Source: Sphingomonadales bacterium (lineage in GTDB: Bacteria; Pseudomonadota; Alphaproteobacteria; Sphingomonadales; Sphingomonadaceae). From it: DNA of 64,000 nt. Every line of letters starts with the position of its first letter. Position 1 is the first letter of the stretch. Below the pieces are notes generated by a model. It did no database searches and was not told where the DNA came from. It saw only the letters and a program-made list of their open reading frames with translations. The DNA is taken from NCBI GenBank assembly GCA_034668565.1, contig JAXDPE010000044.1, positions 997-64,996 on the forward strand, in the 5' to 3' direction. This document shows, one piece after another, positions 1,583 to 47,055 of the stretch. Made by a program: the position numbers and the translations under genes.

Positions 1583-1637
1583 CCTCCCTGCGGCGAAGCC
1601 GCGGGGAGGGGGACCATGCGAAGCATGGTGGAGGGGT
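1583..1637. repeat. left terminal double-hairpin repeat of the DUF559 element
   Basis: CCTCCCTGCGGC-GAA-GCCGCGGGGAGG followed by GGGGGACC-ATGC-GAA-GCAT-GGTGGAGGGG. Its reverse complement recurs at 2009-2059, and related copies lie at 5707-5756 and 5793-5840. Confidence 0.8.
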
Positions 1638-1639
1638 AA

Positions 1640-3365: not shown

Positions 3366-3407
3366 GGCGCGGCGATAGCCGCAGCCCGGCCGCCGGGAAA
3401 GGCTCGC

Positions 3408-3818
3408 TCACTCCCAATGACCCGAAAGCCGACAAATCCTCGCGCAGCAAGCGGAGGTGAAAATGAGTGCGAAGGCCGAAGGCGGTTGAGCGAAGGCCCC
3501 CGTCGCGCCGGCGATCGCAGCGCCTGCCAGGGCGCCGGCCGCGAACCATAGGGATCGCGCTCGGGCGGCAGGGAAGACTCCCCCGGTGAATTGCATGAGA
3601 TAGCTGCCTATCAGGTTGGGGATGATGGACAGGATGAAGCCGACGAAGACGGCCGGAATGAACAGCGCCATGCCGGGGAGGATCTGCGCGGGATCGATGA
3701 TCACGGGCCGGGGCAGCTCGAGATAGGCATAGGCCAGCGCTGTCGAGGCCAGGAAGATTGGGCCGGCGGCCAGCGAAGCCAGGCCGATCGAGCCGGAGAA
3801 TGAGTAGCCTGGGCGCAC
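3408..3818 (-). CDS. hypothetical membrane protein
   Basis: 136 aa with 3-4 hydrophobic segments and GC3-rich codon usage. No family recognised. Confidence 0.5.
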   Translation of the reverse strand: MRPGYSFSGSIGLASLAAGPIFLASTALAYAYLELPRPVIIDPAQILPGMALFIPAVFVGFILSIIPNLIGSYLMQFTGGVFPAARARSLWFAAGALAGAAIAGATGAFAQPPSAFALIFTSACCARICRLSGHWE

Positions 3819-3878
3819 GGCGTTTCCTCCACGAAAAAGTGAGGGCGCGGCCGGTGAAGGCCGCGCCCGTCCAAGGCG

Positions 3879-4253
3879 TCACATCGCGGCCGCGGCTCGC
3901 TGGTCGGAGAACCATTCGTTCACCTTGCGGCCGAAATGGGCGATCGCCGACATATTGAAGAAATGCATGCCGCCGAGCACGATTACGGCGAGGCCGACCT
4001 TGCTGCTGAGGAATCGGATCGCCTCGGCCGGGGTCGTCGGCTCGGCCCCCAGGCTGAGGGTCAGAGTGATGAAGCCGATATTGACGAGGTAGAAGCCGAC
4101 CACGAGCAGATGGTTGGTCGAATTGGCGAGCTCCTCGTTGTGGCCGAAGCACTGGACCAGGAAAACCTTGCCGTTGCGCGACAAAGTGCGGGCCACCCAG
4201 ATCGTGATGGCGAGGGTGATGAGCAGATAGAGGCCATAGGCGATCTCGACCAT
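3879..4253 (-). CDS. hypothetical small membrane protein (downstream of the GbsR-type regulator)
   Basis: 124 aa with 3-4 TM segments (LYLLITLAITIWV, LLVVGFYLVNIGFITLTL, VGLAVIVLGGM). An operator-like palindrome lies 25 nt upstream. Confidence 0.6.
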   Translation of the reverse strand: MVEIAYGLYLLITLAITIWVARTLSRNGKVFLVQCFGHNEELANSTNHLLVVGFYLVNIGFITLTLSLGAEPTTPAEAIRFLSSKVGLAVIVLGGMHFFNMSAIAHFGRKVNEWFSDQRAAAAM

Positions 4254-4277
4254 TCAAAGTTCCTTTCTCTTCGGTTG

Positions 4278-4295
4278 TTTCTGTAAACACTGAAA
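4278..4295. promoter_or_regulatory. operator-like palindrome TTTCTGTAAACACTGAAA
   Basis: Half-sites TTTCTGT/ACTGAAA match 6 of 7. Near-identical to the perfect palindrome at 4897-4914, just upstream of the regulator gene start. Confidence 0.4.
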
Positions 4296-4335
4296 ACTAC
4301 AGGCGTGGAAAAGGGCTGTGTGCGGTCTGTGGCTC

Positions 4336-4887
4336 CTATTTGGGGCTGGGCTTGCCGGCGCCGGGAATGAAGCGGGCGACCTTGCCGCCGAGCTTCATCA
4401 AGGTGACGAGGGTCGGCTTGGGCAGGCCGCGAACCTGCTCGTACCAATCGCCCAGGGTGGAAATGAATTCGTGCATCCGGGTGATGCGCTCGCGCACATG
4501 CCGCGGTGCGCTGTCGTCTTTCGCCAGCCTGGCCGAAAGCTCCGCGAGGAGGGCGACGGTCGGGTCGATCTCGCGCCGTTTACGCTCCGCGACGATCCGG
4601 CTCAGCATCTCCCACAGATCGGTCTCGGCCGTGAAATGATCGCGCCGGTCGCCCTCGATATGCACCCGGCGAACGATCCCGTAGCCCTGCAGCTCCTTGA
4701 GGCCGGTCGAGACGTTGGATCGCGCGAGCCCGAGCTGCTCGACGATATCGTCGGCGGGAAGGGCTCGGTCGGACAGATAGAGAAGGGCGTGGATCTGAGA
4801 TACCGACCGATTGACGCCCCATTGCGTGCCCATCTCTCCCCAATGGAGGACGAAGGCCTTGGCATCCGGATGATCGATCACGCTCAC
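4336..4887 (-). CDS. GbsR/MarR-type winged-helix transcriptional regulator
   Basis: WGVNRSVSQIHALLYLSDRALPADDIVEQLGLARSNVSTGLKELQGYGIVRR matches the wHTH of the GbsR/MarR class. GTG 4885-4887 is preceded by AAGGAA, and the ORF track ATG at 4938 is the alternative start. Confidence 0.8.
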   Translation of the reverse strand: MSVIDHPDAKAFVLHWGEMGTQWGVNRSVSQIHALLYLSDRALPADDIVEQLGLARSNVSTGLKELQGYGIVRRVHIEGDRRDHFTAETDLWEMLSRIVAERKRREIDPTVALLAELSARLAKDDSAPRHVRERITRMHEFISTLGDWYEQVRGLPKPTLVTLMKLGGKVARFIPGAGKPSPK

Positions 4888-4960: not shown

Positions 4961-5053
4961 CCGTCATTGCGAGGAGCGAAGCGACGCGGCAATCCAGAAG
5001 CGGCGGCCGGGACGAACGCCGACCTGGATTGCTTCGCTTCGCTCGCAATGACG
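4961..5053. repeat. palindromic MITE/REP-like element, family A
   Basis: CCGTCATTGCGAGGAGCGAAGCGACGCGGCAATCCAG ... CTGGATTGCTTCGCTTCGCTCGCAATGACG. Other copies lie at 35905-35990 and 37947-38032. Confidence 0.85.
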
Positions 5054-15978: not shown

Positions 15979-17658
15979 ATGGCTGCACAGTATAGCTTCG
16001 TCATGAAGAGCATGACCAAGACCTTCCCGGGCGCTGCCAAGCCCATCCTCAACAACATCAACCTGCAATTCTACCCGGATGCGAAGATCGCGATCATCGG
16101 GCCCAACGGCTCGGGCAAGTCGACCCTGATGAAGATCATGGCCGGCCGCGACAAGGAATATGTCGGCGAGGCCTGGCCGGGCGAGCATATCCGCGTCGGC
16201 TATCTCGAGCAGGAGCCCCAGCTCGATCCGACCAAGACGGTCAAGGAGAACGTCATGGACGGGGTCCGCGCCACCGCCGACATGATGGACCGATTCAACG
16301 AGATCTCGACGATCATGGGCGATCCGCCCGAGGACGCCGACTTCGACGCCTTGATGACCGAGATGGGCGAATTGCAGGAAAAGATCGACGCCGTCGACGG
16401 CTGGTCATTGGACAACCAGCTCGAAATCGCCATGGACGCGCTTCGCTGCCCGCCCGGCGACAGCCCGATCGACAATCTCTCGGGCGGCGAGAAGCGCCGC
16501 GTCGCGCTCACCAAGCTGCTGCTCGAAAAGCCCGACATCCTCCTCCTCGACGAGCCCACCAACCATTTGGACGCCGAGAGCGTGCAATGGCTCGAAAAGC
16601 ACCTCGTCGACTATGCCGGCAACGTCATCCTCGTCACCCACGACCGCTACTTCCTCGACAATGTGGTCAACTGGGTGCTCGAGCTCGATCGCGGCAAATA
16701 TTACATCTATGAATCCAATTATTCCGGATACTTGGACAAGAAAGCTAAAAGGCTTCAGCAGGAAGAGCGCGAGGACGAGGGCAAGCAGAAGGCCATCCAG
16801 GAGGAATTGGACTGGATTCGCCGCTCTCCCAAGGCCCGCCAGACCAAGTCCAAGGCCCGGATCAAAGCGTTCGACGAGCTCGTCGAGGCGCAGGAGAACC
16901 GGACGCCCGGCAAGGCCCAGATCCTCATCCAGGTCCCCGAGCGGCTCGGCGGGACCGTGATCGAGGCCAAGGGCCTGACCAAGGCCTATGGCGACAAATT
17001 ATTGTTCGACGATCTCAGCTTCAGCTTGCCGCCAGGCGGCATCGTCGGCGTGATCGGCCCGAACGGCGCCGGCAAGACGACCTTGTTCAAGCTCATCCGC
17101 GGCGAGGAGCAGCCCGACGAGGGCTCGGTTCGGATCGGCGAGACGGTGCGCCTGGGCTATGTCGACCAGTCCCGCGACGCGCTCGACTCGACCAAGAACG
17201 TCTGGGAGGAGATTTCGGGCGGCTCCGACGTCTTCCGCTTCGGCAAGCACGAGGTCGGCACCCGCGCCTATGTCGGCGCCTTCAACTTCCGAGGCCAGGA
17301 CCAGCAGAAGAAGGTCGGGCAATTGTCCGGCGGCGAGCGCAACCGCGTCCACATGGCCAAGATGCTCCAGCAGGGCGGCAACGTCCTGCTGCTTGACGAG
17401 CCGACCAACGACCTCGACGTCGAGACTCTGCGCGCCCTCGAGGAGGCGCTGGAGAGCTTCGCCGGCTGCGCCGTCGTCATCAGCCACGACCGCTTCTTCC
17501 TCGACCGCCTCGCCACCCACATCCTCGCCTTCGAAGGCGACAGCCACGTCGAATGGTTCGAAGGCAATTTCGAAGCCTATGAAGAAGACAAGCGGCGGCG
17601 GATGGGCCCGGAGGCGGACAGGCCGCATCGTATGACCTATCGGAAGCTTACGCGGTAA
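15979..17658 (+). CDS. ettA: energy-dependent translational throttle protein EttA (ABC-F)
   Basis: Two ABC cassettes (GPNGSGKSTLMKIMAG, LSGGEKRRVAL, GPNGAGKTTLFKLI, LSGGERNRVHMAKML). 559 aa, collinear with EttA. Confidence 0.95.
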   Translation: MAAQYSFVMKSMTKTFPGAAKPILNNINLQFYPDAKIAIIGPNGSGKSTLMKIMAGRDKEYVGEAWPGEHIRVGYLEQEPQLDPTKTVKENVMDGVRATADMMDRFNEISTIMGDPPEDADFDALMTEMGELQEKIDAVDGWSLDNQLEIAMDALRCPPGDSPIDNLSGGEKRRVALTKLLLEKPDILLLDEPTNHLDAESVQWLEKHLVDYAGNVILVTHDRYFLDNVVNWVLELDRGKYYIYESNYSGYLDKKAKRLQQEEREDEGKQKAIQEELDWIRRSPKARQTKSKARIKAFDELVEAQENRTPGKAQILIQVPERLGGTVIEAKGLTKAYGDKLLFDDLSFSLPPGGIVGVIGPNGAGKTTLFKLIRGEEQPDEGSVRIGETVRLGYVDQSRDALDSTKNVWEEISGGSDVFRFGKHEVGTRAYVGAFNFRGQDQQKKVGQLSGGERNRVHMAKMLQQGGNVLLLDEPTNDLDVETLRALEEALESFAGCAVVISHDRFFLDRLATHILAFEGDSHVEWFEGNFEAYEEDKRRRMGPEADRPHRMTYRKLTR

Positions 17659-17746
17659 CCTGACGGACGATCACACGACGGAGACGGTGCTGCTTGCTAT
17701 ATGCAGTTACGCTGCTGTAGAAAGTTGAGGCTTCGGGGGGAGCGCA

Positions 17747-18511
17747 ATGCGGGTCGGTGCAAGATTCTATTTACTTGTCTTTGCAAGTCTTTTTATTGGC
17801 GCCCAAGTCGGGGCACAAACTGTCCCGGAGCCTTCGATCGGCACACTCTGGCGCGATCTGCAGTTCGGTCAATCTCTTCAGGCCGTGTCCGCTCAGTTGG
17901 CACAATATTCGGAAGTTGCGAATGTTAAACCGAAGCCCGGAAAAAAGGGCAAGCCGTCCTCGCTGAAGATCGGCATGAACAAGGGTGGAATCCCGATCTA
18001 CGACAGCGCCTTTTCGCTGCAGACGACCTTTGGGGCGGACGAGCGGTTGCGCGAGGTGACCTTGGTCAGCGGAAGCGAATGCGCCAATGAGGCCACCGGC
18101 AAGTTCGACAAGATTTCCGATGCGTTGGCATCAAAATATGGCGACGAGCTCACCGAGCGCGGCGCGTTGGACCCACTGATGGTGTCGTCGGCGCTGTCCG
18201 AATCCTACGGAAGCCAGCGCGCCGAAACGATCACTTACGGTTATGCCAACGACTCTGTGGCGGTCGCCTTCGTTCTGGCCTTCAGCAAAACCCGGCCTCC
18301 CGAATATGTCGGTGGTGGGTCCCTGGCACGTGCGCTCTCCGGCATCGCTAAAGGGATCTACGATTCGCAGCGCCAGAAATGCCGGAATAGCGGCGATGAA
18401 ACAGTCGTCTACGCAATCAAATATCTGTCCCGGGCAGATTTCGATGCACGCGCGGCGAAGTTGGATGAGGAGCGCGATGCCGACGATGAGGAAGCGGACA
18501 AGAGCCTCTGA
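17747..18511 (+). CDS. hypothetical secreted protein (lower-GC islet)
   Basis: Signal-like N-terminus FYLLVFASLFIGAQVGAQ and acidic tail EERDADDEEADKSL. No family recognised. Local GC is visibly lower than the flanks. Confidence 0.55.
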   Translation: MRVGARFYLLVFASLFIGAQVGAQTVPEPSIGTLWRDLQFGQSLQAVSAQLAQYSEVANVKPKPGKKGKPSSLKIGMNKGGIPIYDSAFSLQTTFGADERLREVTLVSGSECANEATGKFDKISDALASKYGDELTERGALDPLMVSSALSESYGSQRAETITYGYANDSVAVAFVLAFSKTRPPEYVGGGSLARALSGIAKGIYDSQRQKCRNSGDETVVYAIKYLSRADFDARAAKLDEERDADDEEADKSL

Positions 18512-35904: not shown

Positions 35905-35990
35905 CCGTCATTGCGAGGAGCGAAGCGACGCGGCAATCCAGCTTCCGGCCTCGGCGCCACTGGATTGCTTCGCTGCGCTCGCAATGACGG
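35905..35990. repeat. palindromic MITE/REP-like element, family A
   Basis: Starts 1 nt after the ntrX stop, with the same arms as 4961-5053 and 37947-38032. Confidence 0.85.
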
Positions 35991-36124: not shown

Positions 36125-36622
36125 ATGGCCGACAAGGTCAACAACCTCCAGGATCTGTTCCTGAACGGCCTTCGCCGGTCGAAGACTCCGGTGACCATGT
36201 TCCTGGTCAAGGGCGTGAAGCTGCAGGGCATCATAACCTGGTTCGACAATTTCTCGGTGCTCCTGCGCCGGGACGGCCAGGCCCAGCTCATCTACAAGCA
36301 CGCCATCTCGACGATCATGCCCGCCCATCCGATCGACATGGGCGAGATCGAGCGCGCCTTCGACGAAGGCGGCGCCGTCAAGAAGCCGGCCTTGCTCCAG
36401 GAAGCCTTTCTCGGCGCCGTCCGCCGCTCGGGCGAGCCGGTCACCATGTTTCTGGTCAACGGCGTGATGCTTCAGGGAGAAATCGCCGCCTTCGATCTGT
36501 TCTGCATGCTACTCCAGCGCGACGGCCTGTCGCAGCTCGTCTACAAGCACGCCATCTCGACCGTGCAGCCGGAACGGCCTGTGAGCTTCATGGAGCAGGA
36601 TGACGAGGAGCCGGCCGCCTGA
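36125..36622 (+). CDS. hfq: RNA chaperone Hfq, tandem two-domain form
   Basis: Two complete Sm-like modules: [57 protein letters not shown] and [57 protein letters not shown]. Confidence 0.9.
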
Positions 36623-37946: not shown

Positions 37947-38032
37947 CCGTCATTGCGAGGAGCGAAGCGACGCGGCAATCCAGCGGGCCTCGGAGGCCGC
38001 ACTGGATTGCTTCGCTCCGCTCGCAATGACGG
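37947..38032. repeat. palindromic MITE/REP-like element, family A
   Basis: Lies between the convergent hflX and mazG stops, with the same arms as 35905-35990. Confidence 0.85.
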
Positions 38033-38858: not shown

Positions 38859-39455
38859 TCACGGCTTTAGCACCAGCCACTGGCCTTCCACGCTCCAGCC
38901 CGAAAGCGACGACAGGAAGTTCATTCCCAGAACCTGGGTGTCGCCAAAGGAATCGGAGACCTGGACGGCCAGATTCCGGCGCTCGATCGATCCGACCTTG
39001 AGCCGTTCGGCACGGCCGAGCCTGGCCTCCACCATTCCGTTCGCCGTCTGCACCAGCACCGGAAAGCCATCGGTCTCGATTCCGGCCGCAGCGGCAGTCC
39101 TGGCCGAGATGCTGGTCACCGTCGCCCCGCTGTCGACCAGGAAGCGGATCTTCCGGCCATTGAGGTCGCTGTTCACCCAGAAATGACCGTCCATCGACTT
39201 GCGAATCCGAAGCGCCTTGCCGACCGCGACCACCTCCCCCTCGCCTCGGCTCTCCGCCAGAACCCGCTTGCCGAGCGCCATGAAATCGTCCTTGAGCGTG
39301 AAGGCGACGAAGGCGGCTAGGAAGATCAGTACCCAGCCGGCGAACATCTTGAGACCCCGACCGAGCGGAATCCGGCGCACCAGAAGCGCGCTGACGACGA
39401 GGACCAGGACTCCGATCAGATAGACGAAGCTGAGCGCCTGGTCGCCGTCGTTCAC
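38859..39455 (-). CDS. retropepsin-like (clan AA) aspartic protease, membrane-anchored
   Basis: Two N-terminal TM segments followed by FLVDSGATVTSIS (DSG catalytic motif). The GTG start sits in a GTGA overlap with the upstream gene. Confidence 0.8.
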   Translation of the reverse strand: MNDGDQALSFVYLIGVLVLVVSALLVRRIPLGRGLKMFAGWVLIFLAAFVAFTLKDDFMALGKRVLAESRGEGEVVAVGKALRIRKSMDGHFWVNSDLNGRKIRFLVDSGATVTSISARTAAAAGIETDGFPVLVQTANGMVEARLGRAERLKVGSIERRNLAVQVSDSFGDTQVLGMNFLSSLSGWSVEGQWLVLKP

Positions 39456-40216
39456 AGCTCGATTTCCATGCCGTCATAAGCCGGCTCGACGCCGTCGGGC
39501 AGCTCTTCGATCAGGGTGTCGTAATCCATGCTGTTGTCCAAATGGGTCAGCAAAGCGCGTTTCGGCCCAAGCCGGGCGATCCACTCGAGCGCGAGGTCGA
39601 GATGCGGGTGAGTCGGGTGTGGCCGGCGCCTAAGGCTGTCGACGATCCACAGGTCCACCCCTTGGAAACGAATTTCCATCTCCGGAGTCAATTCGTTGAA
39701 ATCGGTTGAATAAACTATGGATGCTCCGCCCGCGTCGAAGCGCAGGCCGGCGGTCGTGATGTCGCCGTGCGGCTGGTCGACCACCTGCACCGACACGCCA
39801 TTCAGGTTCATATGGTCGGGAAGCAGGCTCCCGGTGGCGACGGCGGGATAGCCGCTCTTGCCGTCGAAGGCGTAGGCGAAGCGCTGCTTCAGGCTTTCCA
39901 GGGTCTCGAGCCGGGCAAAACCGGCTACCGGCTGGCGGCGGGCGTGGTAGAGCTGGCGAAGGTCGTCGATTCCGTGGCAATGGTCGGCATGGTCGTGGGT
40001 CCAGATCACGCCGTCCACGCCGGTCACGTTGGCGTCGAGCAACTGCTCGCGAAGGTCGGGGCCGGTGTCGACGAGGATCCGGGCCTTTTCGTGGGTGACC
40101 AGGATCGACACCCGGCGCCGGCGATTCCTCGGGTTGGCGGGATCGCATTCGCCCCAATCGTTGCCCACACGGGGCACTCCGCTCGAAGTGCCGGAGCCCA
40201 ATATGGTAACCTTCAT
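39452..40216 (-). CDS. MBL-fold metallo-hydrolase (PhnP/GPP-like)
   Basis: THDHADHCHGIDDL (HxHxDH motif), 254 aa. Its start overlaps the tatD stop by 1 nt. Confidence 0.85.
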   Translation of the reverse strand: MKVTILGSGTSSGVPRVGNDWGECDPANPRNRRRRVSILVTHEKARILVDTGPDLREQLLDANVTGVDGVIWTHDHADHCHGIDDLRQLYHARRQPVAGFARLETLESLKQRFAYAFDGKSGYPAVATGSLLPDHMNLNGVSVQVVDQPHGDITTAGLRFDAGGASIVYSTDFNELTPEMEIRFQGVDLWIVDSLRRRPHPTHPHLDLALEWIARLGPKRALLTHLDNSMDYDTLIEELPDGVEPAYDGMEIEL

Positions 40217-40989
40217 CAGGCCACCTTACTGAAAAGCTTGCGGAAATTGCCGCTGGTCCGCTCGGCCAGAACCTCGAGCCCCTCCCCCCGCAATTCGGCC
40301 AGGAAACGAGCGGTGTCGGCGACGAACGCGGGCTCGCAGGGGCGGCCGCGGTTCGGAACGGGCGCCAGGAAGGGCGCGTCGGTCTCGATGAGCAGGCGGT
40401 CGGAAGGGATCATTGTCGCCGAAGATTGCAAGTCTTTGGCGTTTTTGAAGGTCACGATGCCGGAAATCGATACATAAAGTCCCAGCGCCAGCGCCTTGTC
40501 GGCGAAAACCTGGCTCGCCGTGAAGCAGTGGATCACGCCCGAATAGGTGCCCTTCGCCATCTCTTCCGCGAGGATGGCGTGCGTGTCCGCCTCGGCCTCG
40601 CGGGTGTGGACGATGATTGGAAGGCCGGTTTCGCGGGCGGCGGCGATATGGGCCCGGAAACTGGCCCGCTGCGCTGCGCGGTCGCTATGGTCGTAATAAT
40701 AATCGAGGCCGCTTTCGCCGATCCCGACCACTCGGGGATGGGCGGCGCGCTCGACCAGGGTCGCGGTCTGGACGTCGGGATGGGCGTCGGCTTCGTGGGG
40801 ATGGATCCCGACCGAGGCCCAGACGTCGCTCTCGCGTTCGGCCAGCCCGATGACTTCGTCCCATTCCGACCGGCGGGTGGAGATGTTGAGCATGGTCGAG
40901 ACGCCGGCGGCGCGAGCACGGCCGAGCACCGCCTGCTGCTCCTCCACCAGTCCTTTGTAATTGAGATGGCAATGGCTGTCGGTGAACAT
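40216..40989 (-). CDS. TatD family metal-dependent hydrolase (DNase)
   Basis: MFTDSHCHL, GESGLDYYY, HCFT and IETDAPFLAP motifs. ATG 40987-40989 follows AAGGAA. The rest of track ORF 40216..42075 is a shadow. Confidence 0.9.
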   Translation of the reverse strand: MFTDSHCHLNYKGLVEEQQAVLGRARAAGVSTMLNISTRRSEWDEVIGLAERESDVWASVGIHPHEADAHPDVQTATLVERAAHPRVVGIGESGLDYYYDHSDRAAQRASFRAHIAAARETGLPIIVHTREAEADTHAILAEEMAKGTYSGVIHCFTASQVFADKALALGLYVSISGIVTFKNAKDLQSSATMIPSDRLLIETDAPFLAPVPNRGRPCEPAFVADTARFLAELRGEGLEVLAERTSGNFRKLFSKVA

Positions 40990-41181
40990 GGCTTTCCTTA
41001 GCCCCATCCCCTCCCCTTCGCGCAAGCGCCGTCTCGGTTTTCCCGACTCGGGCCGTCCTCCCCGCGCGCCGAACGGGCAATCAGGGCGCTGGTACGGAAC
41101 GGCATTTCTGCTACGAGGCGGCGCGGCGGGCTGATCTAAATCAGGTCTTCGACGCGTAGGGGGCTGCGGGACGGTAATTCG

Positions 41182-42231
41182 ATGAAGCGGCCTGACGAGT
41201 GGCGTAGCGCAGACTGGATCGATCCCGCTCACGGACCGCCCGCAAGCGAGGATCCGCGCGTCGCCGTCGTCATCCCCTCTTTCCGGGCGGCGGCCACGAT
41301 CGGCGCCGTGCTTCGGGCGATCGGTCCCGAAGTGAAGCATATCTACGTGGTCGACGACGGCTGCCCCGATGCCACCGGCGAGCGGGCGCTGAAGGATCAT
41401 CGCGATCCCCGCCTCATCGTCCTCCATAACCGCCGCAATCTCGGCGTGGGCGGGGCGATGAAGCGCGGCTATGCGCGCGCCCTCGCCGACGGCGCCGAGA
41501 TCATCGTCAAGGTCGACGCCGACGGCCAGATGGATCCGCGCCACATATCGCGCCTGATCGCACCGATCCTCGAAGGCCGGGCCGATTATTGCAAGGGCAA
41601 CCGCTTCGCCCCGGCGCGGCTGATGCCCTCGGGCAGCTCCCCGAGCGCTCTCAAGGCGATGCCGCCGGCCCGCCGGGCCGGCAACATGGCCTTTTCGGTG
41701 CTCCACAAGGCGGCTACCGGCTATTGGCGGATCGGCGATCCAGCCAACGGCTATACCGCCATCCACGCCCGCGCCCTCGAACGGATCGGGCTGGACGCCC
41801 TGGCGGACTGCTTCTTCTTCGAGACCGACATGCTCTTCCGGCTCAACCTGGTCGACGCGGTGGTCGCGGACGTCCCGCTTCCCGCCTGCTATCCCGGGTC
41901 CGGCAGCAGCCTCAGGCTTCGCCGGGTCGCGCCCCGCTTCGCCGTCATGACCGCGAGCCGGCTGGTTCGCCGCCTGCGCTCGAAATATTTCACCGGCGAG
42001 TGGAATCCAGGCTCGGTCAAGCTCGCGGCCGCGCTGGCGATGATCGCCGCGTCGGCGGGGCTGGCGGGGTGGCATTGGCTCGCGGCCGCGAAGGGCGGCG
42101 CCGCTTTCGGCGCCAGCGCCGCGGCGCTGGCCTGCCTGGCGCTGGGTCTCGCCTTGCTCGCGGCGGCCGGCCTGTACGATGCTCGAAGGACCGCTCGCGA
42201 GCCCCTGTCGAGCCGCAGCTCGACCTGCTGA
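41182..42231 (+). CDS. family 2 glycosyltransferase, polyprenyl-phosphate sugar synthase-like (GtrB/ArnC/DPM1 layout)
   Basis: VAVVIPSF, VVDDGCPDATGE and VKVDADGQMDP...CKGNRF, plus two C-terminal hydrophobic helices (LAAALAMIAASAGLAGW, ALACLALGLALLAAAGLY). Confidence 0.8.
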   Translation: MKRPDEWRSADWIDPAHGPPASEDPRVAVVIPSFRAAATIGAVLRAIGPEVKHIYVVDDGCPDATGERALKDHRDPRLIVLHNRRNLGVGGAMKRGYARALADGAEIIVKVDADGQMDPRHISRLIAPILEGRADYCKGNRFAPARLMPSGSSPSALKAMPPARRAGNMAFSVLHKAATGYWRIGDPANGYTAIHARALERIGLDALADCFFFETDMLFRLNLVDAVVADVPLPACYPGSGSSLRLRRVAPRFAVMTASRLVRRLRSKYFTGEWNPGSVKLAAALAMIAASAGLAGWHWLAAAKGGAAFGASAAALACLALGLALLAAAGLYDARRTAREPLSSRSSTC

Positions 42232-43419
42232 ATGGCGGCTTCAAGGTCGTTCTCGCCTTTCCTGGCCGCCGCCAGGGCGCCGTCCTGGTGGGTGGCGGCG
42301 CTGCTGGTCGGGGCCTGCCATGGCCTCTTCACGCTCGTCGCGGGGGTCGAGATGGCGCCCGACAGCCAGGCTTACGCTTATTTTTCGGCCCGTCTGATCG
42401 AGACGGGCTTCGACTATCCGACGCTGATCGACGAAGCGAGCGGCGGCTTTCCCGCCATCCTCTACGCCTTGTTCGCGACTCTCCTGGCCGGCCTGCGCCT
42501 CGCCTTCGGCGCCGAGTGGGGGACGGCCCTCGTCACGCTCAACCTGGTGGCCCACGTCGCCGTGGGGGCGATGGTCGTCCGACTGGCGGCGCGGCTTACC
42601 GGCGTCGGACTCGCCGCGTGGGGAGCGCTGATCCTCTATCTGATCTGCTTCGATCTGCTCATGTGGGTGCCCTTCATTCTCTCCGATGCGACGTTCGTCT
42701 TCATCGCCTTCGGCATCTTCACGCTCGCCGCCGCGAGAATCCTCGGCGATGCGCGAAGCTGGCTGGCCGTGGCGGCGCCGGCCGTGGCCGGAATCTTCTA
42801 CCGCCCGACGGGAATGGTCCTGATCCCCGACCTCGCCTGGGCGGTCTATCTGTCCAGGACCGGCACCGGGGCGATCCGGCGAGGACGGGCGCTGGCCGCC
42901 CTCGCCGCCGCCCTCGTAACCGGGGCCATGGCCTTTGCCTGGGTGATCCAGGATCCGGCGCGCTGGCCGTTCAACGCCCTGTCGGGCGCCTTCCGCAACG
43001 TCGCGGGGGAATATGCGCTCGGCCAGGTGGTGAGCGGCCGGCCCGAGACCAATCACGCCCCACCGGCCGCGCTGGGCGACTTCCTGCTCCTCTCGGCCGA
43101 CCGCTTCGTCCATTTCTTCGCCATCGGGGCGGCCGGCTACAGCGCAGGCCACTGGCTCGCCGGGCTGGCCTTCTTCCTCCCCTGCTACGCTTTGGCGGGC
43201 TGGCTGGCCGTCGCTTTGTGGCGCGGCCGAACGGCTTTCGGCGCGACCGAGCGCAAGGTGTTCCTGGCGGCGTTCGGCGCCCTTCTCTCCTACGCCGTCT
43301 TCCACGCTTTGGTTCAGGTCGATTTCGATTGGCGCTACCGGACCCCGATCCTGCCCCATCTCATCCTACTCGCGGCCGGAGGCCTTGCGGACCTCGTCCG
43401 GCGGATCGACCGACGGTGA
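42232..43419 (+). CDS. polytopic membrane protein, possible GT-C-fold glycosyltransferase
   Basis: 395 aa with at least 9 hydrophobic segments. The first loop APDSQAYAYFSARLIETG resembles the acidic loop of ArnT/PMT-type GT-C enzymes. ATG immediately follows the upstream TGA. Confidence 0.45.
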   Translation: MAASRSFSPFLAAARAPSWWVAALLVGACHGLFTLVAGVEMAPDSQAYAYFSARLIETGFDYPTLIDEASGGFPAILYALFATLLAGLRLAFGAEWGTALVTLNLVAHVAVGAMVVRLAARLTGVGLAAWGALILYLICFDLLMWVPFILSDATFVFIAFGIFTLAAARILGDARSWLAVAAPAVAGIFYRPTGMVLIPDLAWAVYLSRTGTGAIRRGRALAALAAALVTGAMAFAWVIQDPARWPFNALSGAFRNVAGEYALGQVVSGRPETNHAPPAALGDFLLLSADRFVHFFAIGAAGYSAGHWLAGLAFFLPCYALAGWLAVALWRGRTAFGATERKVFLAAFGALLSYAVFHALVQVDFDWRYRTPILPHLILLAAGGLADLVRRIDRR

Positions 43420-44264
43420 CCCGGCCCGCTTATCTCTTCAGCGTCGACGTCGAAGATCCCCGTCTAGATCTGCCGGACGGGGACAGGTTTCCGGCGCGGG
43501 TCCCCGCTCTGGTCGACACCTATCTCGATTTCCTTCGACGGCATGAGGCCAAGGGGAGCTTCTTCGTCGTCGGCGAAGTGGCCCGGCGGCACCCCGAGAT
43601 GATCGCCAGGATCGCCGCTGAGGGGCATGAACTCGGCTGTCATTCGGACTCGCACGTTCCGCTCGACCGGCTCGGCCAGGCCCGCTTCCGCGACGATCTT
43701 CTGCGCAACCTCGAGGCGCTCGATCGGGCCGGCGCCGGCGCGATCAAGGGCTATCGAGCGCCCTGTTTCTCGATGACGGCGCAGACGGGCTGGGCCTATG
43801 AGGCGCTGGCCGAACTGGGCTTCGCCTATTCGAGCTCGGTGCTTCCGGCGCGAAGCCCGCTCTACGGCCAGCCGGGCTTCGGCGCCCGGCCGCGGCTGAT
43901 CGAGGACGTGGTCGAGCTGCCGGTGACCTTGCTCCCGTTCCGTTGGCTGAAAGTGCCGGTCGGCGGCCTCTATTTCCGGGTGTTGCCCCGCTTCGTCCTG
44001 CGCCGGGCGCTGGCCAGGCGGCGGCGGGCCGGCGAGACCGTCGCAAGCTACCATCATCCCTACGACATCGACACCGAGCAGGCGTTCACCCATGCCGGCT
44101 TTCGCCGCTGGGGCGCCTTCGACCTGTTGATGCGGGCCAATCGCGGCTCGGTTCTGCCGCGGCTGGAAATGGCGAAATCGCTGGGCTTCGCCTTCACCGC
44201 TTATGGCGATCATGCCCGCCGGATCGGCGAGGAACTGCGCTCGAATCGAGGTGAGAATGGCTGA
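43416..44264 (+). CDS. polysaccharide deacetylase family protein (DUF3473-type)
   Basis: YLFSVDVEDP, SFFVVGEVARRHPEMIARIAAEGHELGCHSDSH, GYRAPCFSM and LGFAYSSSVLP. The GTG start is in a GTGA overlap. This is only the 3' part of track ORF 41589..44264. Confidence 0.85.
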   Translation: MTRPAYLFSVDVEDPRLDLPDGDRFPARVPALVDTYLDFLRRHEAKGSFFVVGEVARRHPEMIARIAAEGHELGCHSDSHVPLDRLGQARFRDDLLRNLEALDRAGAGAIKGYRAPCFSMTAQTGWAYEALAELGFAYSSSVLPARSPLYGQPGFGARPRLIEDVVELPVTLLPFRWLKVPVGGLYFRVLPRFVLRRALARRRRAGETVASYHHPYDIDTEQAFTHAGFRRWGAFDLLMRANRGSVLPRLEMAKSLGFAFTAYGDHARRIGEELRSNRGENG

Positions 44265-45105
44265 CCCCTACCGTTTCGAGATGCTCGAGCATACCGAACG
44301 CGGCTATGCCCGGATCTCCGCCCTGATGCGGGAGGTCTTTCCCAAGGCCCGGCACCTCACGCCGCGCTATTTCGAGTGGCATTACGGCCGCAATCCGGAC
44401 GGCCGGGCGATCGGCTGCAACGCCTTTGCCGGGGACAAGCTTGTCGGCCATATGGCCGCCATCGTCTTTCCCTGCCGGATCGAAGGCGAAGTGCGCCGGG
44501 CGATGTACACGGTGAACGGCTCGGTCCACCCCGAGCATCGCGGCCGCCGACTGCAGAGCCGGATCAGCGCCGCCATGTTCGAGGAGGCGGTCCGCCTCGG
44601 CTACGACTTGTGCCTGGCGACCGGCAACAAGTGGAGCACCGGCCCGCTCCTCACCCGGTTCGAGATGGTCCGGCCGCTCGGCGCGCGCCTCGGCATCGGC
44701 CTACCCGGGCGACGCGAGCCCGATCGGCCGCCGGCCTTCGAACGGATCTGGAGCGACGAAGCCTTGCGCTGGCGAATGGCGAACCCCGAAGCCCGATATT
44801 CGGCCGTCCGGCGGCACGGCGACCTGTCGCTACTCTCGGCGACCGGCACCCCCGGCATCGGCGCGATCCTCTATCAGGGCCCCGATTGCGATTCGCTTCC
44901 CGATTCGGGCCCCGCTGCCGGCCCGCTGCGCGTGTGGCTCGGGCTCGACCCGGGAACCGAGTGGAGCAGCTCGGCCTTTGTGCGCATCCCGATGCGCCTT
45001 CGCCCCTCCCCGCTCAACCTCGTCTGCAAGGATCTGACCGGGGGCGGCTTCGTCCCCGATCCGGACCGGGTCGTCTTCCGCGGAATCGACTTCGACGCTT
45101 TCTGA
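44257..45105 (+). CDS. GNAT-like acyltransferase (FemAB/Acetyltransf-like)
   Basis: GHMAAIVFPCRIEG...YTVNGSVHPEHRGRRLQSRISAAMFEEAVRLGYDL resembles a GNAT acetyl-CoA-binding core. ATG 44257 follows GAGGTGAGA and overlaps the upstream gene by 8 nt. Confidence 0.6.
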   Translation: MADPYRFEMLEHTERGYARISALMREVFPKARHLTPRYFEWHYGRNPDGRAIGCNAFAGDKLVGHMAAIVFPCRIEGEVRRAMYTVNGSVHPEHRGRRLQSRISAAMFEEAVRLGYDLCLATGNKWSTGPLLTRFEMVRPLGARLGIGLPGRREPDRPPAFERIWSDEALRWRMANPEARYSAVRRHGDLSLLSATGTPGIGAILYQGPDCDSLPDSGPAAGPLRVWLGLDPGTEWSSSAFVRIPMRLRPSPLNLVCKDLTGGGFVPDPDRVVFRGIDFDAF

Positions 45106-45164
45106 GCGGGTGGTTACGCGGCCCGCCTGCTGGGCTATGCAGCGGGAAGACCAGGGAGAGCGCC

Positions 45165-45530
45165 ATGACCGAAGATCGTTTCGATCCTTCCGCGACCGAA
45201 GGACGCTCGCCGGGGCTGGGCGCCGCCATCGACGCCGCGGTGGGCAAGATCACCACGGGGATCGTCATCGCCGGCGCGATCATCGGCCTCGCCGTTTACG
45301 CCCGGCCCGGTCCGCCGCGTTTCGAAGCCTTCGCCTTCGGCAACCGGATCGTCCGGGTCGACTCGCGCACCGGCTCGATCATCGCCTGCGAGGGGCAGCA
45401 GACCTGCGAGCTGGTCCTTCGCAAGGGCCAGCGCCTGACCCGGATCAAGAGGACCGATGCTTTGCCCGCCCCCAGCGCCGCCCCCGTCGCCGCTACGCCT
45501 CTGCCGGCAGCTCCAGCCGCGGGAAAATAG
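45165..45530 (+). CDS. hypothetical single-pass membrane protein
   Basis: 121 aa with TM segment ITTGIVIAGAIIGLAVY and a Pro/Ala-rich tail. The 3' end overlaps the metG 3' end by 38 nt. Confidence 0.4.
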   Translation: MTEDRFDPSATEGRSPGLGAAIDAAVGKITTGIVIAGAIIGLAVYARPGPPRFEAFAFGNRIVRVDSRTGSIIACEGQQTCELVLRKGQRLTRIKRTDALPAPSAAPVAATPLPAAPAAGK

Positions 45531-47055
45531 GCGTCGGCGGTTCCAGAATGAAGCCGGAGGCGGCCAGCCGGGCGTAGCGGCCGGTGTCGGCGAGGATCGT
45601 GAAATCGCGCTCGCCGGCCGGAACGCCCATCTGGTCGAGAAGCTTCGCCGCCGAGGCCGGCACGACGGGGGCGATGGCGATAGCGAGGTCGACAATGGCT
45701 TCGCACAGGCAGGCGAGGACGGCGGTCATCCGCTCCGGATCGGTCTTGCGCAGGGTCCAGGGCGCCTGGGCGTCGATATATTGGTTGCAGGCGAAGACGG
45801 CGCGGATCCAGGATTCGATCCCCTGGCTGAGGCCGAGGTCGGCGAACTGGCTGGGGAGGTCGACCGCCGTGGCCCGACGGACGAGGGCGAGAAGCTCGTC
45901 GTCGGCCCCCTCCCCCCGGCCGCCGGCGGGCAGGATCCCGCCGCAATTCTTGGCGATGAACGACAAGGTGCGCTGGGCGAGGTTGCCGAAGCTGTTGGCG
46001 AGGTCGGCATTGACCCGGGCGACGATCGCCTCGGGGCTGTAGCTTCCGTCCTGGCCGAACGTGACGTCGCGCATCAGGAAATAGCGCACGGCGTCGGCGC
46101 CGAAGCGGTCGATCAGATCGGCCGGGGCGACGACGTTGCCGGCCGATTTGGACATCTTCTCGCCGCGCAGGAGGACATGGCCGTGGCCGAACACCATCCT
46201 GGGAAGCTCGATCCCGGCCGACATCAGGAAGGCGGGCCAGTAGACGGCGTGGAAGCGGACGACGTCCTTGCCGATGATGTGGATGTCGGCTGGCCAGAAC
46301 TTCCTGTAAGCCTCTGATTCCGTGTCCGGATAGCCGACGCCGCTAAGATAGTTGGTGAGCGCGTCGAGCCAGACGTACATGACGTGGCGTCCGTCGCCCG
46401 GCACCTTCACGCCCCAGTCGAAGCTGGTCCGCGAAACCGAGAGATCCGACAGGCCGCCCTCGACGAAGCGGAGCACCTCGTTGCGGCGGCTTTCGGGGCG
46501 GATGAAGCCGGGATTGTCTTTATAATAAGCGAGCAACCTGTCCTGATAGGAGGAGAGGCGGAAGAACCAGCTTTCCTCTACCGTCCATTCGACCGCGGTG
46601 CCCTGGGGCGACAGCTTCTCGTCCCCTTCGCCGGGCGCGAGCTCGCTTTCATCGTAATAAGCTTCGTCGCGAACCGAGTACCAGCCTTCGTACCGGCCGA
46701 GATAGAGATCGCCGCGATCGGCCATGGCCTTCCAGATCGCCTGGCTGGCGCGGTGGTGGGCGGGCTCCGTGGTTCGGATGAAGCGATCGAAGCTGATCTC
46801 AAGCCTGCGATCCATGTCCTTGAACATCGAGGACATTTCATCGGCGAGCGCGGCCGGACTCATGCCTCTCTCGCGCGCGGCCTGAGCCATTTTGAGGCCA
46901 TGCTCGTCGGTTCCGGTCTGGAAGAAGACCTCCCGGCCCATGGCGCGCTGGAACCGGGCGATGACGTCCGTGGCTACCGCTTCGTAGGCGTGGCCGATAT
47001 GGGGCGGCCCGTTGGGATAGTTGATCGCGGTGGTGACGTAGAAAGGCTCGGACAT
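45493..47055 (-). CDS. metG: methionine--tRNA ligase
   Basis: YVTTAINYPNGPPHIGHAYE (HIGH) and KMSKSAGNV (KMSKS). 520 aa. Confidence 0.96.
   Translation of the reverse strand: MSEPFYVTTAINYPNGPPHIGHAYEAVATDVIARFQRAMGREVFFQTGTDEHGLKMAQAARERGMSPAALADEMSSMFKDMDRRLEISFDRFIRTTEPAHHRASQAIWKAMADRGDLYLGRYEGWYSVRDEAYYDESELAPGEGDEKLSPQGTAVEWTVEESWFFRLSSYQDRLLAYYKDNPGFIRPESRRNEVLRFVEGGLSDLSVSRTSFDWGVKVPGDGRHVMYVWLDALTNYLSGVGYPDTESEAYRKFWPADIHIIGKDVVRFHAVYWPAFLMSAGIELPRMVFGHGHVLLRGEKMSKSAGNVVAPADLIDRFGADAVRYFLMRDVTFGQDGSYSPEAIVARVNADLANSFGNLAQRTLSFIAKNCGGILPAGGRGEGADDELLALVRRATAVDLPSQFADLGLSQGIESWIRAVFACNQYIDAQAPWTLRKTDPERMTAVLACLCEAIVDLAIAIAPVVPASAAKLLDQMGVPAGERDFTILADTGRYARLAASGFILEPPTPIFPRLELPAEA

Follow-up and report, generated by a model that had tools for sequence, protein, structure and literature searches.

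A four-gene cassette between metG and tatD in a soil sphingomonad may encode a donor-editing variant of three-component periplasmic glycosylation

In the LgmA/B/C system of Bordetella and the FlmF2/NaxD/FlmK system of Francisella, an Und-P-HexNAc synthase is followed by a deacetylase and by GT-C hexosamine transfer; the deacetylases are of the YdjC/NaxD type and not CE4 plus DUF3473, the acceptor is a lipid A phosphate, and no GNAT is known to be involved. PpgS is a polyprenyl-P-GalNAc synthase whose product serves a GT-C enzyme as donor, the final sugar being de-N-acetylated. Deacetylation comes first and N-acylation second in the LpxC/LpxD and NodB/NodA pairs, the XrtA/PEP-CTERM deacetylase is usually partnered by a VimA/FemAB-like acyltransferase, and PgaB and IcaB are active outside the cytoplasm. 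Three-component periplasmic glycosylation by GtrA, GtrB, and a Gtr-type GT-C transferase is established (Mann & Whitfield 2016; Kelly et al. 2024, PMC11127046), the Bordetella genes lgmA, lgmB, and lgmC are required for lipid A modification of the GlcN/GalN type (PMC4993483), and in Porphyromonas VimE, a CE4 enzyme, exposes an amine to which VimA adds Ser or Gly (PMC7468200).

The locus analysed here belongs to an uncultured soil sphingomonad. Direct reading of the sequence showed that tatD and metG flank four plus-strand genes (41182-45105), which run antiparallel to both and overlap or abut one another; the features referred to below are as follows:

40990..41181, no strand: divergent intergenic region between tatD (minus) and g1 (plus), 192 bp
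41182-42231, plus strand: g1, 349 aa, GT2 glycosyltransferase
42232-43419, plus strand: g2, 395 aa, polytopic membrane protein, predicted GT-C-fold transferase
43416-44264, plus strand: g3, 282 aa, GTG start, predicted CE4 polysaccharide deacetylase with C-terminal DUF3473
44257-45105, plus strand: g4, 282 aa, predicted tandem-GNAT N-acyltransferase
45106..45164, no strand: spacer between g4 and the 121-aa ORF, 59 nt
45165-45530: g5, the 121-aa ORF, with one hydrophobic segment
45493-47055, minus strand: metG

The g1/g2 junction is a TGA-ATG abutment (42229-42234), the g2/g3 junction a GTGA overlap (43416-43419), and the g3/g4 junction an 8-nt overlap, ATGGCTGA (44257-44264); the 121-aa ORF and the 3' end of metG share 38 nt. 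The gene calls made independently by JGI on the source contig agree with the coordinates and junctions of g1-g4, and together with the sequence they bear out the layout given in the first-pass annotation, including the antiparallel placement between tatD and metG. As that annotation had also stated, no Wzx, Wzy, Wza, or sugar-nucleotide synthesis genes were found within +/-8 kb of the cassette. The 64-kb window, i.e., the whole stretch of DNA that was analysed, contains no flippase gene, either inside the cassette or outside it.

The setting of the cassette was compared across 65 related metagenomic loci in which both metG and tatD were visible. The spacing between the two genes was 60 nt or less in 51 of these loci, and the cassette lay between them in only two. 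In most related loci, holB, metG, tatD, and MBL, part of the block named as conserved in the first-pass annotation, were found to follow one another without interruption and in the same direction. The view of that annotation that the module looks inserted was upheld by the synteny comparison, the same genes not occupying the junction throughout the order. Synteny indicates that metG and tatD were ancestrally contiguous and that the cassette entered their junction in a subclade of Allosphingosinicella. Alignment of an empty locus (L077) with two occupied ones (L072 and L073) showed conservation limited to about 60 bp beside the tatD start, followed by divergence, which puts the left insertion boundary at about 41045-41050. 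Since L077 carries a metG-g5-tatD arrangement from which g1-g4 are absent, the 121-aa ORF stands apart from the cassette and does not belong to the module with which it had been listed, and the cassette ends before g5, with its right boundary within 45106..45164. No flanking repeats above chance were found at the insertion, and no sigma-70 consensus was found in 40990..41181, the interval within which the cassette promoter presumably lies. The same junction in related lineages also takes up other, unrelated small inserts.

The first gene matched PF00535 (8e-18), and its best NCBIfam matches were AglJ and PpgS at about 51 bits each, below cutoff. The closest PDB entries by sequence were DPMS 5mlz (2.8e-6) and ArnC (1e-4), and in the DPMS/ArnC alignments VDADGQMDPRHI of g1 pairs with MDADLQHPPEVI and LDADLQNPPEEI. 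The protein contains VDADGQMDP, the DAD-x-Q-x-x-P motif common to DPMS and ArnC, and two C-terminal hydrophobic segments (277-295 and 313-331). The motif, the two segments, and the nearest solved structures favor the polyprenyl-phosphate sugar synthase class to which g1 had been assigned at first reading, and our prediction for this protein is a polyprenyl-phosphate HexNAc synthase in the GtrB/DPMS/ArnC/PpgS class.

For g2 itself, Pfam and NCBIfam searches gave no match. Relatives of g2 matched the GT-C family PMT_2 above its cutoff of 26.1 (27.7 bits for P0107 and 34 bits for L059), and other Pfam matches among them were to PMT and GT22, likewise GT-C families, and to DUF2142 and DUF6541. The AlphaFold model (pLDDT 85, pTM 0.87) has about 11-12 membrane helices and no large periplasmic domain, and the Foldseek search against PDB returned at a probability of at least 0.84 only the GT-C enzymes AftB, ArnT, Pmt4, and DPY19, with TMq of 0.41-0.47 and weak E-values of 0.15-0.8. 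The TM segments and the APDSQAYAYF loop on which the GT-C proposal had been based are present, with nine hydropathy peaks and with MAPDSQAYAYF after TM1. Within this first periplasmic loop D44 of PDSxxY is invariant in 53 family members, down to 20% identity, and the motif aligns to PDETRY of ArnT; the hhalign comparison of the g2 family with a single ArnT sequence gave a probability of 0.8%, which is not significant. With the Foldseek matches and the PMT_2 scores of its relatives both in agreement with the proposal, g2 is predicted to be a GT-C-fold transferase of an uncharacterised family, which comprises 591 clusters at 50% identity.

The third protein matched PF01522 (2e-18) and PF11959 (2.4e-15), as expected from its earlier description as a DUF3473-type polysaccharide deacetylase, and matched the PDB CE4 entry 3rxz at 5e-14. 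Its CE4 motifs are intact, including HSDSH, and no signal peptide or hydrophobic N-terminus was found, SVDVED beginning at residue 9. We therefore regard g3 as a predicted cytoplasmic de-N-acetylase of a sugar donor. The fourth had been called GNAT-like and given no role; the first part stands, with a match to Acetyltransf_9 (5e-9, residues 15-118). For its AlphaFold model (pLDDT 91.5), Foldseek ranked highest the N-myristoyltransferases (E 2e-10, TMq around 0.6) and 2hv2, an Eis-like protein. Members of the g4 family weakly matched AAC(3)-I, AAC(2')-I, MshD, and Eis, one member weakly matched NodA and one NMT, and g4 gave no match to TIGR03019 or the FemAB models. A role can now be proposed, namely that of a tandem-GNAT N-acyltransferase, predicted to be cytoplasmic and to acylate an aminosugar amine.

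Co-occurrence was counted in 50 loci with flanks, each around a g2 homologue. Of these, 31 had a g1-like GT2 (E<=1e-40) no more than 3 kb from the g2 homologue, and 22 had all three partner genes near it. The check proposed at first reading found the four genes together elsewhere as well, arranged in three different orders and lying in at least four distinct annotated contexts. One variant order, GT2-deacetylase-GNAT-GtrA-GT-C, matches the succession of steps in the pathway proposed below. Because g4 is nearly always accompanied by the deacetylase (22/23 loci), the cassette product may be re-acylated rather than left as a free cationic amine. The pair of g1-like GT2 and GT-C was also found in Rhodobacterales, Burkholderiales, other Gammaproteobacteria, Nitrospina, a Bdellovibrio-like MAG, and Abditibacteriaceae; given this spread across many phyla, it is not sphingolipid-specific, and nothing links it to glycosphingolipids, which the first-pass annotation had put forward as an acceptor, alongside EPS or protein, on the premise of an LPS-less host.

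The cassette could well be a self-contained system for extracytoplasmic glycosylation via a lipid-linked donor, of the three-component type but with the donor edited, a reading that we hold with middling confidence. In this pathway, g1 would use a nucleotide sugar to load undecaprenyl phosphate on the cytoplasmic face with a sugar, presumably N-acetylhexosamine, and g3 would take off the N-acetyl group, as its family, intact CE4 motifs, and cytoplasmic location suggest. The exposed amine would be re-acylated with an acyl or aminoacyl group by g4, by analogy to VimE/VimA, NodB/NodA, and LpxC/LpxD, which is the least secure step. The lipid-linked donor would lose its N-acetyl group and probably be re-acylated. 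A flippase encoded outside the present copy would flip the donor, and on the periplasmic side the compact GT-C protein g2, for which the fold has support, would hand the sugar to a membrane-proximal acceptor, possibly a lipid-anchored glycan since g2 has no periplasmic domain. Among relatives, a GtrA gene (PF04138, 4e-21) sits between GNAT and GT-C in L024 and L026, GtrA is fused to GT-C in L059, a small EamA (ArnE/F-like) gene lies behind the GT2/GT-C pair in L064, and a GtrA gene is 3 kb off in L052; GtrA inside or fused to these cassettes, or an ArnE/F-like gene beside them, fits three-component periplasmic glycosylation. What speaks against this explanation is that g4 has its weak sequence affinities with aminosugar N-acetyltransferases that use acetyl-CoA and not with FemAB; removing an acetyl group only to restore it would be futile, unless the acyl donor or the amine were another one. 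Also weighed against it were the weak Foldseek E-values of g2 and its lack of a Pfam match, the non-significant hhalign comparison with ArnT, the absence of a flippase gene from the 64-kb window, the natural GT2+GT-C fusion P0255, whose GT2 is not g1-like, and the 19 of 50 loci without a g1-like GT2 within 3 kb of the g2 homologue.

The affinities of g4 would be accommodated by strict Arn-type logic, which we consider rather unlikely, in which N-acylation is transient and a free-amine cationic sugar lowers the negative surface charge. Here g4 would N-acetylate an aminosugar nucleotide supplied by genes in another part of the genome, as the ArnA formyltransferase domain does, g1 would load Und-P, g3 would deacetylate as ArnD, and g2 would transfer as ArnT, so that each of the four genes gets a necessary role. 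The g1, g3, and g2 proteins share superfamilies with ArnC, ArnD, and ArnT, the AAC(3)-I, AAC(2')-I, MshD, and Eis matches are to acetyl-CoA-dependent enzymes, and related GlcN/GalN lipid A modification systems such as lgmABC are known (PMC4993483). However, the genes in and near the cassette include none for aminosugar-nucleotide synthesis, such as an aminotransferase or a dehydrogenase, the GNAT would be superfluous if the donor were UDP-GlcNAc or UDP-GalNAc, there is no homology between a GNAT fold and the ArnA formyltransferase, and the Arn equivalog models scored far under cutoff.

Direct assembly of a glycolipid, resembling GPI or lipid A, is improbable. It would have g1 place HexNAc on ceramide or diacylglycerol instead of Und-P, g3 deacetylate it, the NMT-like g4 add a longer acyl chain, and g2 extend or modify the flipped glycolipid, for which the absence of a periplasmic domain in g2 suits a lipid substrate, and LpxC/LpxD and NodB/NodA offer precedents for a deacetylase acting before an acyltransferase. 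By fold, g4 comes closest to N-myristoyltransferases, and the single weak NodA and NMT matches in its family point the same way, but the likeness to NMT is explained by the shared tandem-GNAT architecture, and an Eis-like protein scores too. Bacterial ceramide glycosyltransferases known from the literature (PMC13318209), namely Sgt1/Sgt2 and the ceramide glucuronosyltransferases, are named as separate proteins. All nearest relatives of g1 use polyprenyl phosphate acceptors, and the GtrA genes and fusions indicate a flipped polyprenyl-P-sugar.

A PNAG/Ica-like exopolysaccharide synthase, with g1 processive, g2 an IcaC/PgaD-like export or acyl-modification partner, and g3 a polymer deacetylase, is very improbable. 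The ica and pga loci likewise combine a GT2, a membrane protein, and a CE4 deacetylase, but the match of g1 to PgaC_IcaA (32 bits, cutoff 422) is limited to the N-terminal GT-A core and is below the AglJ and PpgS scores, no QxxRW was found on reading the g1 sequence, in which the C-terminal TM helices number just two, PgaB and IcaB work outside the cytoplasm but g3 lacks a signal peptide, and g2 resembles GT-C enzymes and not acyltransferase-3 or PgaD. That the four genes are mere neighbours in a permissive intergenic hot spot, as the unrelated inserts at this junction might suggest, is scarcely credible given their overlapping or abutting start and stop codons, and is largely refuted by the occurrence of the same four families together in three orders and at other genomic sites.

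In comparison to the Arn pathway (ArnB, ArnC, ArnA, ArnD, ArnT, ArnE/F; L-Ara4N on lipid A), the cassette has three superfamilies in common, a similar proposed order (Und-P loading by the GT2, de-N-acylation by CE4 on the cytoplasmic face, and transfer by GT-C), and, as with ArnA, an N-acyltransferase in the operon, which is of the GNAT and not the formyltransferase fold. The similarity is at superfamily level only (g1/ArnC 27% identity across 116 aa, g3/E. coli ArnD E 6e-4, g2/ArnT not significant), and ArnE/F is missing from the present cassette. With 19 bits for g1 against an ArnC cutoff of 529, the weak g3/ArnD match, and no ArnA or ArnB equivalents, g1-g3 were rejected as Arn orthologues. 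The proposed succession of Und-P-HexNAc synthase, deacetylase, and GT-C hexosamine transfer is shared with Bordetella LgmA/B/C and Francisella FlmF2/NaxD/FlmK. Mycobacterial PpgS (Rv3631)/Rv3779, which puts GalN onto arabinogalactan, resembles the cassette in that PpgS is among the two best NCBIfam matches of g1; it differs in the score (51 bits against a cutoff of 370), in its GT-C family, and in the absence of the deacetylase and GNAT from the mycobacterial locus. The pairing of CE4 with a GNAT-superfamily N-acyltransferase, by which an N-acetyl group is exchanged, is found in VimE/VimA of the Wbp/Vim system and in the XrtA deacetylase and FemAB-like pair (PMC7468200). The XrtA-system model TIGR03006 is the closest NCBIfam model to g3, at 161 bits (cutoff 276); unlike VimA/FemAB, g4 matches neither TIGR03019 nor FemAB, and no exosortase or Wbp genes occur near the cassette.

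As in three-component systems, a GT2 polyprenyl-phosphate sugar synthase adjoins a GT-C transferase, and a GtrA-family protein is present in the sister cassettes L024 and L026 and fused to GT-C in L059. The present copy differs in having no flippase gene, in a GT-C family without a Pfam model, in its location outside any O-antigen locus or prophage, and in the added cytoplasmic CE4 deacetylase and tandem-GNAT acyltransferase, by which the donor would be edited. In general, these comparisons suggested that the cassette, first described as an undescribed envelope-modification system, is most likely a variant of a known strategy, three-component periplasmic glycosylation (PMC11127046), and is new in its predicted donor-editing genes and uncharacterised transferase family.

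The four plus-strand genes between tatD and metG (g1 to g4) form a real and coherent module, which the first-pass annotation described correctly. The features of the region are as follows.

40216-40989, minus strand, tatD, on one side of the cassette
41182-42231, plus strand, g1, GT2 protein of 349 aa
42232-43419, plus strand, g2, predicted GT-C transferase of 395 aa
43416-44264, plus strand, g3, CE4 and DUF3473 deacetylase of 282 aa with a GTG start
44257-45105, plus strand, g4, tandem GNAT protein of 282 aa
45165-45530, plus strand, 121-aa ORF (g5) with one hydrophobic segment, convergent with metG and overlapping its 3' end by 38 nt
45493-47055, minus strand, metG, on the other side of the cassette

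The coordinates of g1 to g4 obtained from the sequence are the same as the independent gene calls of JGI (Ga0467042_0000126, metagenome 3300044739), and direct reading of the sequence gave the gene junctions as claimed, that is, a TGA-ATG abutment, a GTGA overlap, and an 8-nt overlap. The GC and GC3 values of the four genes were on a par with those of the flanking genes, and the close homologues all carry the label Allosphingosinicella MAG. No promoter-like site was found in a promoter scan of the cassette, and the two terminator-like matches in it were both intragenic and fewer than the random expectation.

The proposal that the cassette was inserted at an otherwise contiguous metG-tatD junction was borne out by a tatD metagenome scan of 80 loci, in 65 of which both metG and tatD were visible. 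The distance from metG to tatD was 60 nt or less in 51 of the 65 loci, 61 to 400 nt in 8, and more than 400 nt in 6, and only two of these loci (L072 and L073, with tatD 89% to 93% identical to that of the window) carried the cassette, which was also seen in the fragment L075. The 121-aa ORF had been taken as a follow-on of the module, but at L077 (tatD 91% identical) it stands alone between metG and tatD, with g1 to g4 all absent; the ORF is therefore an independent, older resident of the junction, with the cassette on its tatD side. By alignment with L077, the left edge of the cassette was mapped to some 60 bp upstream of the start of tatD. At the cassette ends, neither direct nor inverted terminal repeats exceeded chance, no tRNA was adjacent, and integrase and transposase families were absent from the annotated neighbours. 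Among related sphingomonads, this junction acts as a hot spot for the insertion of small segments.

Several further observations were made at this junction and around it. Unrelated small genes occupy the metG-tatD gaps of L083, L086, L091, L102, L104, L109, and L117, with a lipoprotein-like ORF carrying AYRIGC in L083, L109, and L086 (the last having a 1.6-kb insert), a GKST-containing ORF of about 170 aa in L091, and ORFs of about 90 to 100 aa in L104 and L117. The 121-aa ORF has no family match and is kept in most of the cassette-bearing Allosphingosinicella loci. A palindromic repeat of 86 nt (CCGTCATTGCGAGGAGCGAAGCGACG...CGCTCGCAATGACGG) which looks like a REP/MITE-like element is located at 4961-4986, 35905-35990, and 37947-38032 of the window; its two full copies, 87% identical, bracket hfq-hflX, three copies of its first 26 nt are present in the window versus 0 expected by chance, and no copy was found at the cassette boundaries. 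The hfq gene (36125-36622, plus strand) encodes a 165-aa product with two Hfq domains and contains an internal duplication (36146-36312 versus 36395-36561, DNA 71% identical). The minus-strand gene at 38859-39455 encodes a protein of 198 aa that has a hydrophobic segment at its N-terminus and contains the retropepsin-like aspartic protease domains Asp_protease_2 and gag-asp_proteas; in the window and in L003 alike, it is kept beside an MBL-fold gene and mazG.

To describe the occurrence of the cassette in other genomes, we used a g2-motif scan with one genome per species, which gave 68 loci on which the window proteins were mapped by phmmer, and partners within 3 kb were counted for the 50 loci in which the g2 homologue has 2.5 kb or more of sequence on each side. 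The results showed that a g1-like GT2 (E<=1e-40) was near the g2 homologue in 31 of the 50 loci, a g3-like deacetylase in 23, a g4-like GNAT in 22, and all three partners together in 22. Sixteen of these 22 full sets were at the tatD-metG junction and six were elsewhere, with three of the six sites annotated as below.

L152, between a thioredoxin/Lon-N cluster and NTP_transf_5
L153, downstream of lepA, adjoining toxin-antitoxin and HamA genes
L154, within a ribosomal-protein cluster, between rplA and rplJ

Co-occurrence of the four genes, on which the first-pass annotation depended, was thus found at other genomic sites and in three gene orders: GT2-GTC-deacetylase-GNAT, GT2-deacetylase-GNAT-(GtrA)-GTC, and an inverted GNAT followed by GT2-GTC-deacetylase. 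Beyond the sphingomonads, the conserved unit is the pair of g1-like GT2 and GT-C, whose hosts include Anianabacter, Spiribacter, Burkholderiales, Nitrospina, a Bdellovibrio-like MAG, and Abditibacteriaceae. In the genome scan (L004-L071), all loci having the complete set of four genes belonged to MAGs, and the only matches free of a MAG or uncultured label were Anianabacter salinae and Spiribacter salilacus, in which the g1-like GT2/GT-C pair is present, and Pelagibacter HIMB1587, in which the GT-C is adjoined by a weak GT2 match only (2e-6). The deacetylase and GNAT are absent from all three loci, and direct genetics is therefore limited.

At L154 (Allosphingosinicella SMAG_U832, DASTDX010000113.1, 2488-6360), the GNAT is divergent from GT2-GTC-deacetylase between rplK-rplA and rplJ-rplL, and genes for a GT4 glycosyltransferase and GtrA lie between nusG and rplK, a conserved ribosomal-protein cluster being an unusual location for envelope genes. 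At L153 (SMAG_U3347, 1-4800 and 16943-17818), the variant cassette is adjoined by defence-type genes, namely HamA with a DEAD helicase (Hachiman-like), two ParE/PaaA2 toxin-antitoxin pairs, and a TIR_2 protein.

The assignment of g1 to the polyprenyl-phosphate sugar synthases held up. Pfam gave a Glycos_transf_2 match (PF00535, 8e-18), two hydrophobic helices are located at the C-terminus (277-295 and 313-331), and the only solved sequence relatives in PDB were dolichol-phosphate mannose synthase (DPMS) 5mlz (2.8e-6) and two ArnC structures (1e-4). The g1 segment VDADGQMDPRHISRLI aligned with MDADLQHPPEVIPKLI of DPMS and LDADLQNPPEEIPRLV of ArnC, and its DAD-x-Q-x-x-P motif aligns with both. 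Based on the domain, the motif, and the two helices, g1 has the layout of the GtrB/DPMS/ArnC class and is predicted to have the corresponding activity. The top NCBIfam models were AglJ and PpgS (about 51 bits each, far under the equivalog cutoffs), which represent an archaeal S-layer glycoprotein N-glycosyltransferase and a polyprenyl-phospho-GalNAc synthase, respectively, and by sequence g1 is an orthologue of no named synthase of this class.

For g2, Pfam and NCBIfam searches gave no match, and neither g2 alone nor a 28-sequence profile matched in the PDB sequence search, so the wider family and the structure model were considered. Only four of 53 diverse family members matched at E<=0.01 in the search against PMT_2; P0107, 59% identical to g2, scored 27.7 bits for PMT_2 versus a gathering threshold of 26.1 over profile positions 7-155 of 160, and the member at L059 scored 34 bits (PF13231, cutoff 26.1). 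Further members matched PMT, Glyco_transf_22, DUF2142, and DUF6541, the first two of which also belong to the GT-C group. The AlphaFold model (28 homologues; pLDDT 85.4, pTM 0.87) was compared with PDB by Foldseek, the fold test proposed for this protein, and the matches with probability of at least 0.84 were all GT-C enzymes: AftB (1.00), ArnT (0.98), Pmt4 (0.96), and DPY19 (0.84). The query-normalised TM-scores of the GT-C matches were 0.41 to 0.47 and their E-values were weak (0.15 to 0.8); ALG12 came next in the list with probability 0.35, and the other listed matches (channels, transporters, and assorted unrelated proteins) were at or below 0.11. Against viral structures, Foldseek returned uncharacterised proteins only. 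The loop after TM1 contains two short helices and Asp D44 in PDSQAYAYF, and D44 is invariant in 53 family members down to 20% identity. Together, the family Pfam matches, the Foldseek matches, and the conserved loop Asp argue with moderate strength for a predicted GT-C fold. In hhalign, the comparison of the family with E. coli ArnT was not significant (0.8% probability), with D44 opposite PDETRYAEIS, and the resulting PD(S/E)xxY alignment may be taken only as a hint. An O-antigen-ligase or Wzy type was rejected, no such entry being present among the Foldseek matches listed. Since a sizeable periplasmic domain is absent from the model, we infer that the acceptor of g2 would be close to the membrane. 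The family is of moderately large size, with 591 clusters at 50% identity having E<=1e-3, and is spread over many phyla, SAR11 and candidate-phyla-radiation (CPR) bacteria included.

The gene for a dedicated flippase is not part of the window copy, and phmmer queries with GtrA and ArnE/F gave no match anywhere in the 64 kb of the window. In related loci, a GtrA-family gene (PF04138, 4e-21 and 4e-19) lies between the GNAT and the GT-C (L024 and L026), a small EamA (ArnE/F-like) gene follows the GT2/GT-C pair (L064), and GtrA genes are found a few kb from the GT-C (L052 and L154). At L059 (936-2648, Candidatus Moraniibacteriota), the two are naturally fused, with the GtrA domain (60 bits) on the C-terminal side of the GT-C (PMT_2, 34 bits). 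The GtrA and EamA genes and the fusion in relatives support a predicted tie of the g2 family to flipped polyprenyl-phosphate sugars. Another natural fusion, the 700-aa protein P0255, has an N-terminal GT2 joined to GT-C; it was down-weighted as a Rosetta-stone link between g1 and g2, its GT2 half not being g1-like.

The g3 protein has Polysacc_deac_1 and DUF3473 domains (Pfam), with motif 1 SVDVED beginning at residue 9 and HSDSH also present. The position of SVDVED leaves no signal peptide, and g3 is therefore predicted to be cytoplasmic. Its top curated model was the XrtA/PEP-CTERM-system deacetylase TIGR03006, at 161 bits versus a cutoff of 276, and with no exosortase or EPS genes in the locus this identity was rejected. 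For g4, Pfam gave Acetyltransf_9 over residues 15-118, and the AlphaFold model (pLDDT 91.5) is a tandem GNAT whose closest folds are N-myristoyltransferases (E about 2e-10, TMq about 0.6), then an Eis-like protein. Members of its family match AAC(3)-I, AAC(2')-I, MshD, and Eis, all weakly; these enzymes N-acetylate amino groups of aminosugar-containing substrates. Membership of FemAB/VimA was rejected, g4 and its family having no match to FemAB-type models. In PEP-CTERM loci, a g3-type deacetylase is normally paired with a GNAT-superfamily acyltransferase. In Porphyromonas, an N-acetyl group is swapped for Ser or Gly by VimE (CE4) and VimA (acyltransferase) (PMC7468200). Based on these two analogies and on a variant gene order which is colinear with load, deacetylate, acylate, flip, and transfer, we favour the prediction that g4 would re-acylate the exposed amine.

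The best-supported reading of the cassette is a three-component-type extracytoplasmic glycosylation system with donor editing, the three-component periplasmic scheme having a known precedent (PMC11127046). An N-acetylhexosamine would be loaded on undecaprenyl phosphate by g1, the N-acetyl group would be taken off by g3 at the cytoplasmic face, g4 would act on the exposed amine, the donor would be exported by a flippase encoded outside this cassette copy, and g2 would transfer the sugar to a membrane-proximal acceptor. Tool results back the enzyme classes, the predicted placing of g3 and g4 in the cytoplasm, the conserved linkage of the genes, and the tie to GtrA; we infer the sugar, the acyl group, the acceptor, and whether g3 and g4 work on the nucleotide sugar or on the lipid-linked form. 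The main rival is a strict Arn logic, in which g4 would transiently N-acetylate an aminosugar nucleotide and the final sugar would be a free amine; the weak affinities of the g4 family to acetyl-CoA enzymes speak for it, but aminosugar-nucleotide synthesis genes are absent nearby. A PNAG synthase (PgaCD/PgaB, IcaAD/IcaB) was rejected, as g1 scores 32 bits for PgaC_IcaA versus a cutoff of 422 and ends in just two TM helices, and a signal peptide is missing from g3.

With donor editing as the preferred reading, one candidate acceptor is the glycosphingolipid outer leaflet or another lipid-anchored glycan, to which the N-edited hexosamine would be added from its undecaprenyl-phosphate donor on the periplasmic side. 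Glucosamine is present in the higher-order Sphingomonas glycosphingolipids GSL-3 and GSL-4 (PMC4018217), and the bacterial glycosphingolipid glycosyltransferases named in PMC13318209 add glucuronic acid or hexose, not glucosamine. The idea is weakened by the g2-motif scan, which found no homologue in records titled Sphingomonas, and by the core pair being found in many phyla, and we regard it as quite unlikely. If it were true, g2 would be the first known GT-C enzyme acting on a bacterial sphingolipid, and in bacteria where sphingolipids replace LPS, the cassette would be functionally equivalent to the aminosugar modification of lipid A. More generally, the donor-editing reading, if true, would describe a compact, portable cassette decorating the envelope with an N-edited amino sugar, would give a function to a GT-C family, and would unite three-component periplasmic glycosylation and deacetylase/acyltransferase N-acetyl editing in one operon. 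For sphingomonads, this could signal a new way of altering glycosphingolipids or EPS, with consequences for the surface charge, desiccation tolerance, and phage or antimicrobial-peptide resistance of these soil bacteria.

In comparison to known systems, the cassette shares with the three-component systems the GT2 synthase class and an adjoining GT-C-like transferase, but the dedicated small flippase (GtrA or ArnE/F type) is missing from the window copy. The ArnC-ArnD-ArnT-like logic proposed at first was retained at the level of shared superfamilies, but not as orthology: g1, g2, and g3 are not orthologues of ArnC, ArnT, and ArnD, the ArnC model NF007986 gives g1 19 bits versus a cutoff of 529, and BLASTP against the E. 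coli proteins shows no more than superfamily-level similarity (27% over 116 aa for g1 and ArnC; E 6e-4 for g3 and ArnD). In the Arn pathway, UDP-Ara4FN is supplied by ArnA (dehydrogenase/formyltransferase) and ArnB (aminotransferase), both absent within 8 kb on either side of the cassette. Since the equivalog scores are far below cutoff and the Arn similarity is superfamily-only, the cassette, as judged from sequence comparison, is a member of none of Gtr, Arn, and Lgm, which it appears to resemble in its working. The general logic of the scheme is already well established, and what is new in comparison to these systems is a GT-C family without a Pfam model, the coupling of a CE4 and DUF3473 deacetylase and tandem-GNAT pair to a lipid-linked donor system, and the portability of the cassette into housekeeping junctions.
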